Part shown: positions 45,929 through 49,800 of the stretch, in pieces
Position numbering within the stretch: the stretch's first letter is position 1
Layout of the letters: each line of letters opens with the position of its first letter
DNA from: a virus
Lineage: Duplodnaviria > Heunggongvirae > Uroviricota > Caudoviricetes
IMG/VR virus record: IMGVR_UViG_2880412407_000002
Reading direction: 5' to 3' (one strand)
DNA: 64,000 nt
The notes under the pieces: model-generated
Database searches by the model: none
Told to the model about the DNA's origin: nothing
What the model saw: only the letters and a program-made list of their open reading frames with translations
Translations under genes and position numbers: made by a program

Positions 45929-46948
45929 CTACTTGCTAACCACGAGCGGCAAATCCAGTGTTGGTGTGATTTTTGTTTTACGATCGTAAATCAACACCTG
46001 ATTTTCTGTTTTATGCCCGCTGAAAATTTGTTTGTCGCGACTGCTGCCTTCGTAATCTGAGATCCCCTTGGCTTTTATGTCGTGAAAATTGCACCCGAAC
46101 GGAACGCCAACTTTTTGCTCGGCTGCGCGTTTAGCCTGATTCCACCAGTTATTCAGCGTTTTAGCTATGACTTTCCCGCCTTTGGTTGTATTGATCACAT
46201 ATTCGCATGTACAGGAAGATACATTTCGGGCTAACTGGATCGCTGTACGTAATCGCGGTGACCATTCCTTGATTTGTTTGGTGCCGGTTTTGTTTTGCTC
46301 AATGTAGATCCCTTTATCCATAATATCCTGCCATTTCAACTCAAGCACATCACCGAGTCTTGCCGCACAGAGATAGGAAATCTCCATTGCAATGCGTAAC
46401 TGTGGAATTGCTTCCGCATATATCGCCGCATACTGTTCATCGGTGATGTAAACAGTGCGGGCTTTAAGAGAGAATTTTCTGACTCCTTTGCATGGGTTAT
46501 TCTTCACATACCCACGCTCATATCCCCACCCGTATACTCGACTCAGGCTTGCCAGTTCATGATTTGCCTGGGTCTTGCTCTCAAGCCCTCGTTTATCCAT
46601 GAAAATTCTTACCTGCTCAGTTTTGACATTATCAGCAAGCACTTTTCCGAATACCATCAGCAACGCCTTCTGATGTTGTCGATAATCTTTTTGGGTTCGG
46701 GGGGCCAGTTCTGTAAATGCAGGGGAGTCCATAAACATGTGCCACAATTTAGCTACGGTCATTATGTTGTGGAGTTTTGCTTTTTCCAGTTCATAATTTT
46801 GCCAGACTTTAGCTACGCTGGTTTTCCGCACTCTTCCTAGCCCTATACTTCTTGTACTTCCTTCGGGTTTCCACACGTAACTGTAACCATTCGATCTAAC
46901 CCGCGGTGGCAGTACATTATCTTTTTTATTTTTTCTTGGTCTTCCCAT
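45929..46948 (-). CDS. int: Phage integrase (tyrosine recombinase), second copy
   Basis: 339 aa, one amino-acid difference from the copy at 1-1020. Confidence 0.85.
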   Translation of the reverse strand: MGRPRKNKKDNVLPPRVRSNGYSYVWKPEGSTRSIGLGRVRKTSVAKVWQNYELEKAKLHNIMTVAKLWHMFMDSPAFTELAPRTQKDYRQHQKALLMVFGKVLADNVKTEQVRIFMDKRGLESKTQANHELASLSRVYGWGYERGYVKNNPCKGVRKFSLKARTVYITDEQYAAIYAEAIPQLRIAMEISYLCAARLGDVLELKWQDIMDKGIYIEQNKTGTKQIKEWSPRLRTAIQLARNVSSCTCEYVINTTKGGKVIAKTLNNWWNQAKRAAEQKVGVPFGCNFHDIKAKGISDYEGSSRDKQIFSGHKTENQVLIYDRKTKITPTLDLPLVVSK

Positions 46949-47168
46949 TGTTCAGCGCCTCAAAATCGGGTTCAGCAGAAACCAGTTCAGATGTTTTTGG
47001 CATCGTTGTCAGACCGTGTGGAATATCCCTGCGGAGAACTATGGGTTCGTTTTTAGGGCCGATTACAAATGGGATGCCGTGCAGTCTTAACTGGTGTTGC
47101 TGTTTTGTGTATCGCTCGTATTTCGTGATCTCTTTAATCTCTGCTGGAGATAGAGTTAATTCGTACAT
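46926..47168 (-). CDS. xis: Excisionase-like small protein
   Basis: Identical arrangement to 998-1240. Confidence 0.5.
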   Translation of the reverse strand: MYELTLSPAEIKEITKYERYTKQQHQLRLHGIPFVIGPKNEPIVLRRDIPHGLTTMPKTSELVSAEPDFEALNNGKTKKK

Positions 47169-47235
47169 GTGGTCACGTGCCTTTACAGCATGACCGCCGC
47201 CACTATAGCTGGTGGGCGGCGATATGGGTTGAACA

Positions 47236-49707
47236 TCAAAAATCAGCCTGACTCGGGAGCAGTTTTTGCCAGATGGCTGAAACGTATTTCGCCTGGTAAC
47301 GTGCATCGTTCAGAGCGTTATGGCGTTCACCTTCGAATGGAATAGTCGTTCTTGCGTCGAAATCCATCACCAGTCCCAGAGCAACCATCGTTCTTACATC
47401 GCGATCATTGGTGTAACGCCATGGGCAGGGGATCCCCTGCCGTTCATATGAACGGCGTAAAATCACGTTGTCGAAAGTTGCACCGTTACCCCAGACCTGA
47501 ACAAAAAATTCACCGGAGTTTTCGTCGATAAATTCCCGTAATTGCAGCAGTGCATCATCTAACGGGATTTCATCGGTAAGAATGGCGGATTGCGCTTCGC
47601 GTGACTGTTTCAGCCACCACTTAATGGTGTCCCGATCAATGACTCCGCCAGCAGTTTCCAGATCGATAGTTTTGCTGAATTCTGGCCCCATCTCTCCGGT
47701 TTGCGGATCGAAAAATATTGCACCTATTGAGATAATCGGGGCATCAGGATTTTTTCCCATTGTTTCAAGGTCAATCATCAGATGGTGCCACAACCTGCTG
47801 GTGGATGAGATTTCATGATGACCGTTCACTTTAATTAAGGGATTTGCTGTTTCGCCAGTTTTATTATCGCTGGCGTGATACTGATCGCTGCCAGTGTTCT
47901 CCTTGTGCAGATGTTCAGTGCCTTCCATTTCCTCCGGATCATTTTTCTGAGCTTCAGCCTGATTCTCTTCATCGAATGTTTCCAGGTAGGTTGCGTTCCC
48001 CATCACCGCACCACAGTCAGGACAGTTGCCGCCACCGGTCTGACCGCATGCGGTGCAAACTTTTTCCAGTTCCTGTTGCACTGCTGGTTCTGGTTGTTGT
48101 TCTTCTGGCCCGTTTTGTTGCGTATCCGGGCTGTTTTGTTCCGCTTCTGGCTCATTTTGTTTCACGTTGGGCTGATTCTGGTCCTCAGCGTCGCGACTCT
48201 GGATCCCTTTCACCCATTTCGGATCATTCGGGTCGCTAATCCCTTCAACAAATTCACCACGTGATGCAGCAAGCAATTTATCGGCGTCAGGCTGGCTGAT
48301 ATTGGCTGCCTGCATAATTTTGTTTACTTCGTCAGCGGTAACTTTTACCGGCTCTGATTGTTCGGAATCTTCAGCGGTATCCACATTTTGCGGTAAGCCC
48401 GTGTATGTGCCATTTTTTCGGGCAAAATATTCTTCTTTTGAGATTTCGGTACCGCCGGCAGCCAGCGCCTTGTCCAGACCAGAAAGTTTGTTTGCCCTGC
48501 CGTATTTTTCCCCGCCCTTATCGGTAAAGACGAAATAAAATGGTCCTTCACGCTCTACAGATGGTTCAGCTTCCACCAGGATTTCATTTTTTTGAGTATC
48601 GGATTCTGCCGTCTCCACTGGAGCAGTTTGTGCTGCTGACGGCTGGAGAGCATCAGTAGAGCTCTGGTCTGTTTCTTCATGTTCAAACACGCCCTTTGTC
48701 GTCAGGTATTCACTGATATATTTGTTCAGTGCAACGGGATCTTTGTGAATATCGATCGGACGTTCGCGAACAAGGCCAAAAATAGTCTGACGGTCATAGC
48801 CAAGTGCTTCGGGCTGTTTGCGCATTGATGCTGAGATACGCTTCCAGTCTTCGCGATCCTTGTCGATAACCTCATTTGTCGCCCAGCGATGGATGGTACC
48901 GTCAATGTTTCCTGCATCCACATCACCGGGCCAGAGGGCGCAGGCCAGTTCATTGTCGAGTGTTTTCCATGTCTGTTTGTATTCGCGGCGAATGGCAACA
49001 GTGACAGCCCCGGTTTTTTCAGCAGCGTTTTCAGTGTTCTGTTGGTTGACTCTGGCGCGGGTGAGATCAACAACAGACGTGTATTTTCCGGTTTCCTTGC
49101 GTTCACCTTCGCGACGTTTTTTCCAGATGCGCATCTCTGCCTGAATTTCAGGCCATTTAGCGCCAGGCTCACATTTATGCTTAACCCACCCGATGGCATG
49201 CAGTTTAAGTTCAGGATACATGGCGTTAACTTCTGGCATTTTCATCAACGCTTCAACGATATGTCCGCCGAATGTTGCCATGTCTTCCTGTAGTAATTCC
49301 TGTGCGCTAATCACCATATCAACGGTGATGTTTTCGCATGTGTCGAATTTAACCAGGACTGCGTTCTGTACTTCAGGGGACAGCTTGTCAAAATTGACGT
49401 TCATCGGATCGGATTCTGGTTCGACCGGTACAAAGGAAGCTGACTCCTCATCCCAGCGGTTTTCCTGCATATATTCGGTATCCCAGGAATCGAGGGCAGG
49501 GCGGGGTATGCCGGGTTTATCCTCGCAGACAATAAATTTATAAGCGCAGTCCTGAGCTGCCGGGAATTGCTCCAGAAATTGCCAGTGAAATTTTGCGCGT
49601 GCGCGACGCTCATCACCGGCTTCAATGGCAGTGGCCACCGCAACAGCGCTATCTTCTTTTATGGCCTGTTCGTCAGGAATAGCAGCGCAAATAAAGATTT
49701 TACTCAT
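47236..49707 (-). CDS. Large phage exonuclease-like protein (DnaQ-like C-terminal domain), divergent paralog
   Basis: 823 aa; conserved termini, divergent acidic central region relative to 1308-3743. Confidence 0.65.
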   Translation of the reverse strand: MSKIFICAAIPDEQAIKEDSAVAVATAIEAGDERRARAKFHWQFLEQFPAAQDCAYKFIVCEDKPGIPRPALDSWDTEYMQENRWDEESASFVPVEPESDPMNVNFDKLSPEVQNAVLVKFDTCENITVDMVISAQELLQEDMATFGGHIVEALMKMPEVNAMYPELKLHAIGWVKHKCEPGAKWPEIQAEMRIWKKRREGERKETGKYTSVVDLTRARVNQQNTENAAEKTGAVTVAIRREYKQTWKTLDNELACALWPGDVDAGNIDGTIHRWATNEVIDKDREDWKRISASMRKQPEALGYDRQTIFGLVRERPIDIHKDPVALNKYISEYLTTKGVFEHEETDQSSTDALQPSAAQTAPVETAESDTQKNEILVEAEPSVEREGPFYFVFTDKGGEKYGRANKLSGLDKALAAGGTEISKEEYFARKNGTYTGLPQNVDTAEDSEQSEPVKVTADEVNKIMQAANISQPDADKLLAASRGEFVEGISDPNDPKWVKGIQSRDAEDQNQPNVKQNEPEAEQNSPDTQQNGPEEQQPEPAVQQELEKVCTACGQTGGGNCPDCGAVMGNATYLETFDEENQAEAQKNDPEEMEGTEHLHKENTGSDQYHASDNKTGETANPLIKVNGHHEISSTSRLWHHLMIDLETMGKNPDAPIISIGAIFFDPQTGEMGPEFSKTIDLETAGGVIDRDTIKWWLKQSREAQSAILTDEIPLDDALLQLREFIDENSGEFFVQVWGNGATFDNVILRRSYERQGIPCPWRYTNDRDVRTMVALGLVMDFDARTTIPFEGERHNALNDARYQAKYVSAIWQKLLPSQADF

Positions 49708-49800
49708 TGTGTTTTAACCTCATTACAGATTTAAGGGTGAACAAATCCCTGCCATTGCTGGCATATAAAAATGAAACCGGATATTAATTACGGTGCTGTT

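Follow-up and report, generated by a model that had tools for sequence, protein, structure and literature searches.

Two head-to-tail mosaic lambdoid prophages sharing near-identical integrase and hok-DUF968 modules in Shiga-toxin-producing Escherichia coli O121:H19

The DNA analysed in the present study is a stretch of 64,000 nucleotides (the window; IMG/VR virus record IMGVR_UViG_2880412407_000002) that is 99.9-100% identical to chromosomes from Shiga-toxin-producing strains of Escherichia coli (STEC) O121:H19, and position 1 of the window corresponds to position 4,987,708 of NZ_CP027317.1 (2015C-3107). Two different mosaic lambdoid prophages, designated P1 and P2, lie head-to-tail and in the same orientation in this stretch, each starting with an integrase gene (int), and two near-identical modules are shared between them. 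According to RefSeq, the order across the array is yccA, P1 (int to espK), P2 (int to espJ) and torT. P1 consists of int, DUF4224, exonuclease, dicB, racR/ydaS/ydaT, replication, hok, DUF968, rusA, DUF1133, methyltransferase, lysis, head, tail and espK, and P2 of int, DUF4224, exonuclease, dicB, RelBE, repressor, DnaC-type replication, hok, DUF968, rusA, Q, CPBP, tRNAs, lysis, head, tail, nleG and espJ. The gene order, based on the RefSeq annotation of the identical record and on Pfam, is lambda-like, and the mosaicism is evident from segments with very unequal identity to other phages and sharp borders, observed in four-way identity profiles, in the comparison with O111 and in the census of joints given below. 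The key families, namely Phage_integrase, DUF4224, the Rv2179c-like exonuclease domain, Hok, DUF968, RusA, Q or DUF1133 and two sok RNAs, were confirmed using Pfam and Rfam.

Just before position 1 to about 45727: P1, which carries espK
About 45788 to beyond the end of the window: P2

Comparison of the window with itself by BLAST revealed two blocks repeated in direct orientation. Block 1 pairs 1-4784 with 45929-50752 at 90.1% identity over 4,844 columns (offset 45,928 bp), and block 2 pairs 11786-13996 with 59142-61350 at 97.5% (offset about 47,355 bp). A preliminary description of this DNA had reported an int-xis-exonuclease block and a hok-DUF968-rusA block, both close to identical, in two otherwise different prophages. 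Over the extents that it proposed, the identity is 92.5% for block 1 (1-3780 versus 45929-49745, with 250 mismatches and 37 gap columns) and 95.2% for block 2 (11760-14005 versus 59140-61375), so that the repeats are neither short nor below the 90% at which the proposal was to be abandoned. The direct orientation, the distance of about 46-47 kb and the sharing of both modules by two different prophages are borne out; the near-identity holds for the cores only (99.84% and 99.76%) and fails for roughly half of the extent claimed. The immunity, replication, Q and cargo regions differ as described, but the prophages are not entirely different elsewhere: weaker direct repeats were found in the window at 5368-5680, 6740-7169, 7718-8309 (96%), 8345-8733 and 14658-15061, and the late genes of P1 match those of P2 beyond the window in stretches of 3-6 kb at 82-92%. 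Matches of kilobase length above 99% are not due to chance.

The features of block 1 are as follows.

1-1879: core repeat 1, copy A (P1), with int, the Xis-like DUF4224 gene and the exonuclease gene's 3' end
45929-47807: core repeat 1, copy B (P2), 100% identical to copy c2 of O103:H2 12009
1-1020, minus strand: P1 tyrosine integrase, 339 amino acids (Pfam PF00589; RefSeq WP_001370339.1)
45929-46948, minus strand: P2 tyrosine integrase, 339 amino acids (list of open reading frames (ORFs); RefSeq WP_001299351.1)
998-1240, minus strand: P1 DUF4224 protein, in the excisionase position (Pfam PF13986; RefSeq WP_000273151.1)
46926-47168, minus strand: P2 DUF4224 Xis-like gene (RefSeq)
1308-3743, minus strand: P1 exonuclease, 811 amino acids (Pfam PF16473, residues 629-801)
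47236-49707, minus strand: P2 exonuclease, 823 amino acids (Pfam PF16473; RefSeq WP_000034468.1)

The core of block 1 (1-1879 versus 45929-47807) is gapless and 99.84% identical, with 3 single-nucleotide polymorphisms (SNPs) and longest perfect runs of 883, 424 and 388 bp; beyond 1880 the identity falls sharply to 73-94% per 200 bp. The second copy starts further left, at 45688; in the 2015C-3107 record, the sequence paired with 45688-45928 is found immediately to the left of window position 1. The near-identity ends at about 1830-1880 (47760-47810 in P2), which is the N-terminal edge of the Rv2179c-like 3'-5' exonuclease domain encoded at the C-terminus of the P1 exonuclease by about nucleotides 1343-1859. 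The two integrases are identical at 338 of 339 residues, with D46A as the sole difference, and the DUF4224 Xis-like proteins are identical. O103:H2 12009 has two annotated copies of the integrase protein of P2, and O157:H7 (Z1813) has this protein as well; the DNA of the int module in O157:H7 shows 98.3% identity. Among 5,426 complete genomes, the int module was found in 743 at a coverage of at least 80%, including about 196 at an identity of at least 99%. Block 1 is a site-specificity module comprising int, the Xis-like gene and the attP arms, together with the C-terminal exonuclease domain. A third allele, that of O103:H2 copy c1, breaks at most 50 bp from the same domain-edge point, and the domain boundary might therefore be a recurrent crossover site.

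Block 2 contains the following features.

11942-13577: core repeat 2, copy A (P1), with the 3' part of sok, hok, a small ORF and DUF968
59297-60931: core repeat 2, copy B (P2)
11816-11990, plus strand: P1 sok antitoxin RNA (Rfam RF01794, 117.5 bits)
11985-12140, plus strand: P1 hok toxin gene (Pfam PF01848; RefSeq hokD)
59171-59345, plus strand: P2 sok antitoxin RNA (Rfam RF01794, 107.1 bits)
59340-59495, plus strand: P2 hok toxin gene (RefSeq hokD WP_000813263.1, the same protein as in P1; ORF list)
12588-13637, plus strand: P1 DUF968 protein, 349 amino acids (Pfam PF06147)
59943-60991, plus strand: P2 DUF968 gene, split here by a 1-bp deletion (A5 for A6) at about 60598
13650-14009, plus strand: P1 RusA (Pfam PF05866), 100% identical to O103:H2 copy c1
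61004-61375, plus strand: P2 RusA (Pfam PF05866)
61365-61736, plus strand: P2 antiterminator Q (Pfam PF06530 and PF06576)
14018-14548: P1 DUF1133 Q-like protein, in place of Q

The core of block 2 (11942-13577 versus 59297-60931) is 99.76% identical, with 3 SNPs and one 1-bp indel, and its longest perfect runs are 703, 392 and 332 bp. Beyond 13577 the identity is 90-97% and homology is then lost; the rusA genes of P1 and P2 are about 92-94% identical and hence lie outside the near-identical core. The overlap of a Hok-family gene with a predicted sok antisense RNA (Pfam, Rfam) points to a hok/sok type I toxin-antitoxin system. Block 2 is a mosaic module in wide circulation; its edges are prone to crossover, and it is placed between alternative early regions and alternative rusA/Q regions. 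The deletion in the DUF968 gene of P2 results in two ORFs (59943-60704 and 60659-60991), the gene is intact in 2015C-3107, and a sequencing error is as likely a cause of the split as real pseudogenisation.

The position of the array on the chromosome is indicated by the attachment sites, and the features at the junction between the prophages are given here.

45688-45928: attP-like junction of P1 and P2, with a P arm carrying a phage-type terminator, a core at 45728-45787 and a P' arm extending to the int stop codon
43756-45117, minus strand: espK type III effector gene, right-end cargo of P1 just before the junction (RefSeq)

The gap between yccA and int holds the 3' 60 nucleotides of serT (tRNA-Ser UGA), broken in the anticodon loop, and the same 60 nucleotides recur at 45728-45787. 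To the right of this core, as far as int, the copies are near-identical, and the 108 bp adjoining int match perfectly; 45688-45928 agrees with the attL beside yccA in NZ_CP027317.1 from the core towards the right. The left flanks differ, with the chromosomal serT terminator beside yccA and a phage-borne terminator after a tail-fibre-assembly remnant in the window. In addition, the P arm of the serT attR near hyaA matches window positions 45640-45727 with one mismatch. The yccA-side site, just left of the window, is therefore an attL, and 45688-45928 is an attP-like site having two phage arms, as would be predicted for the junction of two phages that occupy one site. Scans for tRNAs, using ARAGORN for the window, revealed no intact tRNA in the window or in the gap between yccA and int, consistent with attL and attP-like sites.

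Herein, we propose that the two mosaic lambdoid prophages were quite probably integrated in tandem at serT through their shared module, with the near-identity reflecting recent common descent of exchanged modules. The int genes are head-to-tail and both on the minus strand, the specificities of the integrase and the Xis-like protein match, and attL and an attP-like site are both present. The shared int/att module would target both phages to the anticodon-loop region of serT, and the second integration would leave an attP-like site between P1 and P2. In other words, both phages lie at the same serT site because the site-specificity module of block 1 is common to both. Block 1 is not a coincidental repeat; it is the reason for the tandem placement, a meaning that the preliminary description had missed. 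Which phage integrated first, and which was the parent, we infer rather than observe.

The composition of P1 was revealed by a census in which four 5.6-kb joints at block 2 were searched against the 5,426 complete genomes. The native joint of P2 was found in 452 genomes, with a count of about 455 at an identity of at least 99%, and that of P1 was found at such an identity only in the 8 O121 genomes; P2 carries block 2 in its commonest context. The chimeric joint composed of the P1 upstream region, block 2 and the P2 downstream region is contiguous in 79 genomes, most of them O111, at 99.9% over 5,636 bp, and the best match of the reciprocal joint (P2-left, block 2 and P1-right) is 96.2%. The serT prophage of O111:H- 11128 matches window positions 6738-13996 at 99.1% and 59142-64000 at 99.5%. 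The first 6.7 kb of P1 are not O111-like, with an int of 95% identity and a different immunity region. From about 13506 on, P1 is 100% identical to the espK phage of O103:H2 (copy c1), of which the DUF968 gene is only 80-93% identical. These comparisons indicate that P1 is an O121-specific hybrid of an O111-type early segment (6738-13577), including block 2, and the right part of an espK phage, and the hybrid joint lies at about 13506-13577, at the DUF968/rusA boundary.

Several points weigh against tandem integration as a full account of the locus. The right end of P2 adjoins torT and carries the attR side belonging to the torS/torT prophage; no serT attR was found there. As it stands, P2 is not simply the product of integration by Int, and tandem integration requires a subsequent rearrangement, which is documented. 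No deletion or hybrid variants were found among the 8 complete O121 genomes, in which rare variants of a subpopulation would not show, with the P1-P2 and P2-torT junctions and both native block-2 joints kept in 8 of 8, but these genomes are closely related, so this invariance says little about recombination rates. Moreover, the left part of P1 joined to the right part of P2 exactly reconstitutes the O111-type phage joint observed at 99.9% in 79 genomes, which insertion by homology would also produce.

The rearrangement can be followed in the same genome. A serT attR that matches in its P arm and adjoins an intact serT is located about 163 kb away next to hyaA. The right end of P2 (nleG-espJ-torT) is the right end of a widespread torS/torT prophage, and this end was found in 82 genomes at a coverage of at least 80%, with identities of 100% in the 8 O121 genomes, 99.9% in the O103 strain ML775 and about 98.2% in most others. 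The canonical order, espK-attR-serT-hya...torS-int3...nleG-espJ-torT, is observed in ML775. In 8 of 8 O121 genomes, the torS-int3 junction is about 185-190 kb from the P2-torT junction. A 24-kb segment, serT-hyaABCDEF-appCBA-etk-gfc-cspHG-torS, is missing between P2 and torT and lies about 163 kb downstream inside a potB/potC prophage, at 5,246,748-5,270,524 in 2015C-3107, in the K-12 orientation (region NZ_CP027317.1 5,199,900-5,324,700). To the left of the relocated segment are potC and then a prophage that terminates with a TccP2-like gene followed by a true serT attR, and to the right are the torS/torT integrase and then a lambda-like phage ending at potB. The late region of P2 and that of the phage to the right of torS have 15.2 kb in common at 97.4%. 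Inter-prophage recombination has clearly reshaped this locus.

With A for the serT, B for the torS/torT and C for the potB/C prophage, the order A-S-B-T-C would have become A_L::B_R - T - C_L::A_R - S - B_L::C_R, and the simplest route might be a crossover between A and B that excises a circle, followed by re-insertion into C by homology. This arrangement implies a three-prophage exchange, in which P2 would be a hybrid of a serT phage on the left and a torS/torT phage on the right. The array is a rearranged tandem, explained by later inter-prophage exchange. Simpler routes were considered and rejected. A simple deletion of the serT-torS segment between P2 and the torS/torT prophage does not agree with the presence of hyaAB in 5,423 of 5,426 genomes or with the segment found about 163 kb downstream; an inversion does not account for the foreign right end of P2 in O121, since the yccA flank, the torT flank and the relocated segment are all in the K-12 orientation. 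The serT-torS relocation was found neither in the main text of the O121 paper (PMC8767318) nor elsewhere in the searched literature. P2 appears to be a stranded prophage, with no cognate attR beside it, so that excision by its own integrase would remove about 260 kb. P1, flanked by attL and the attP-like site in direct orientation, might in principle be excised by Int and Xis.

A related array is present in O103:H2 12009 (NC_013353.1 2,283,000-2,400,000), where three tandem prophages carry tccP2, espK and nleB2/nleC/nleH/nleF as cargo and the second and third encode the same integrase protein. At its right end the P2 homologue abuts yodB at the serU locus, not serT-hyaA, which suggests exchange with the serU prophage, probably through an inversion.

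An alternative to tandem integration is that a circular espK phage carrying the hok-DUF968 block entered a resident O111-type serT prophage by a Campbell-type crossover in the 1.6-kb block, without integrase. We consider this unlikely, and it is doubtful that the block-2 copies are the scars of such a crossover and 45688-45928 the intact attP of an inserted phage. The reconstituted joint described above is what insertion would leave, the O111 11128 prophage aligns to both 6738-13996 and 59142-64000, the original right end of the array has TccP2-like cargo as does the O111 phage, and the middle site has two phage arms like an uncut attP, although such a site is equally expected from ordinary tandem integration. 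The donor joint that insertion requires, P2-left, block and P1-right, does not exceed 96.2% in the 5,426 genomes, whereas the own joint of P2 is the commonest natural configuration (452 genomes). A P2-type left end occurs alone next to yccA in O157:H7, and in O103:H2 the espK-attP-int-P2 segment recurs (99.3% over 21 kb) after a phage that is not of the O111 type; the first 6.7 kb of P1, being unlike O111, also argue against a resident prophage of that type. If insertion had taken place, a single RecA event between the block-2 copies would exactly restore the O111-type prophage and set free a complete espK phage, circularly permuted and with an intact attP.

Another possibility, which seems distinctly improbable, is that the prophages arrived with diverged int and hok-DUF968 regions that were later homogenised in place by gene conversion between the tandem copies. 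The sharp drops from 99.8% to about 80% identity inside genes might be read in this way, as might a few sites in 11948-12305 that are common to both O121 copies and different in the O103:H2 orthologue of P2, and a strain-specific cluster of 19 SNPs in the head-tail genes of P1 (29290-30339) suggests conversion patches in the lineage. The few sites shared in O121 are equally explained by private changes in O103:H2, there being no outgroup and copy c1 being non-homologous there. In a comparison of four copies with O103:H2 12009, no site of block 1 groups the two O121 copies against the O103:H2 copies; the block-1 copy of P2 is 100% identical to the orthologue c2 over 4.9 kb, and the 3 SNPs of P1 are private. 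In P1, block 2 runs without a break into 5.2 kb of O111-type sequence absent from P2 and would have arrived with that segment. Gene conversion in place was rejected as the cause of the near-identity given the identity of P2 with its orthologue and the lack of within-genome grouping in block 1; descent of exchanged modules accounts for the near-identity, and conversion in place is not needed. It is scarcely credible that the repeat or the tandem arose from mis-assembly of similar prophages. The 11 homopolymer indels between the window and 2015C-3107 indicate that at least one assembly has sequencing errors of the homopolymer type, but the same junctions are present in 8 independently assembled complete O121 genomes, the copies are distinguished by specific SNPs and flanks, and O103:H2 12009 shares the espK-attP-int junction.

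Each of the 11 indels that separate the window from 2015C-3107 lies in a homopolymer run (e.g. 16610, 19035, 25197, 27019, 33423 and 42485), and the indel at 33423 splits the tape-measure ORF. About 19 of the 24 substitutions between the two sequences are concentrated in 29290-30339 (1.05 kb; head-tail joining and tail genes of P1). The allele of the window in this segment is the one found in most O121 genomes, with at least 5 others carrying it (four at 100% and one at 99.9%), and the O121 genomes listed each have two places for the segment. The patch looks like a gene conversion in 2015C-3107 from a paralogous prophage, and no paralogous donor was found among the retrieved prophage loci.

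Perfect runs of 400-880 bp are, by estimate, well above the length required by RecA, and the repeats might serve as substrates for RecA-mediated deletion. A crossover in block 1 would leave P2 alone next to yccA, and a crossover in block 2 would leave an O111-type hybrid. The earlier proposal that the repeats drive recombination is plausible and has indirect support, in that the block-2 joint predicted from it occurs at 99.9% in 79 genomes of other lineages and in that other prophages have demonstrably traded distal ends with P2 and with its O103:H2 homologue; no deletion is seen in the 8 complete O121 genomes. The 79 genomes could equally hold the parental phage as a deletion product.

Other features of the prophages were also observed. 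Two low-G+C cargo islands lie on the minus strand: one at 43700-45930, at the right end of P1, contains espK and a small ORF at about 40% G+C, and the other at 57900-58800, just upstream of block 2 in P2, contains an alpha/beta-hydrolase gene (57962-58735). P1 contains genes for a DNA methyltransferase (15139-16215) and an iraM-like anti-adaptor (16811-17137), and P2 a RelBE toxin-antitoxin pair (52086-52564). The DicF small RNA was detected at full score (77 bits) in P2 at 50363-50414 on the minus strand; in the P1 counterpart (4235-4389, minus strand), no DicF was found at an E-value of 0.01 or better, and an STnc100-like match is sub-threshold (33.5 bits versus a gathering score of 47). The dicB regions of P1 and P2 differ in small-RNA content. 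Among the isolated phages of the phage collection, no match covered more than 45% of the left 18 kb of P2 (89% identity).

The feature is real but ordinary, of a kind already known and documented for O157 and non-O157 enterohaemorrhagic E. coli (EHEC), and its value lies in the local detail. It shows how STEC amass type III effector cargo (espK on P1; nleG and espJ on P2), in that phages sharing int and att stack at one tRNA gene. The shared modules then act as crossover points, leading to new phage chimeras and chromosome rearrangement. In addition, repeats of this kind make O121:H19 harder to assemble, to type by its prophages and to place in SNP-based outbreak phylogenies.

Tandem integration is known to occur when phages share an attB (PMC8112680), and in O121:H19 four sites hold tandem prophages according to the main text of Nishida et al. 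2021 (PMC8767318). In the site list of that paper, as given in its main text, torS/torT is occupied in all L1 strains and serT in a single strain; the array described here is bounded on the left by the serT attL, next to yccA, and on the right by the attR of torS/torT. Chimeric Sp5/Sp15 phages have been reported to arise in EHEC from highly similar segments of resident prophages (Asadulghani et al. 2009, PMC2669165). Inversions and translocations mediated by prophages are described for STEC, and such inversions specifically for O121 in the main text of PMC8767318. These events were seen experimentally or between strains, whereas the evidence for the P1 and P2 repeats is entirely comparative.

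The serT prophage of O111:H- 11128 has the architecture expected from a crossover between the block-2 copies of P1 and P2. It is unlike the array in being single and degraded by insertion sequences, with a frameshifted integrase of 95% identity (DNA), CI/Cro-type immunity and TccP2/EspV' cargo beside an intact serT. The O157:H7 prophage beside yccA (Z1813) encodes integrase, DUF4224, DicB, DUF1482, RelBE, repressor and YdaT proteins identical to those of P2. This serT prophage, which we take to be Sp4 in Sakai and CP-933M in EDL933, is the first occupant next to yccA in O157:H7, whereas in O121 P1 intervenes and the distal end of P2 has been replaced. Finally, the window resembles the tandem effector prophages of STEC and of enteropathogenic strains of E. 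coli (EPEC) in its head-to-tail pair at a single tRNA site, with integrase and att in common and with type III effectors at the right ends.

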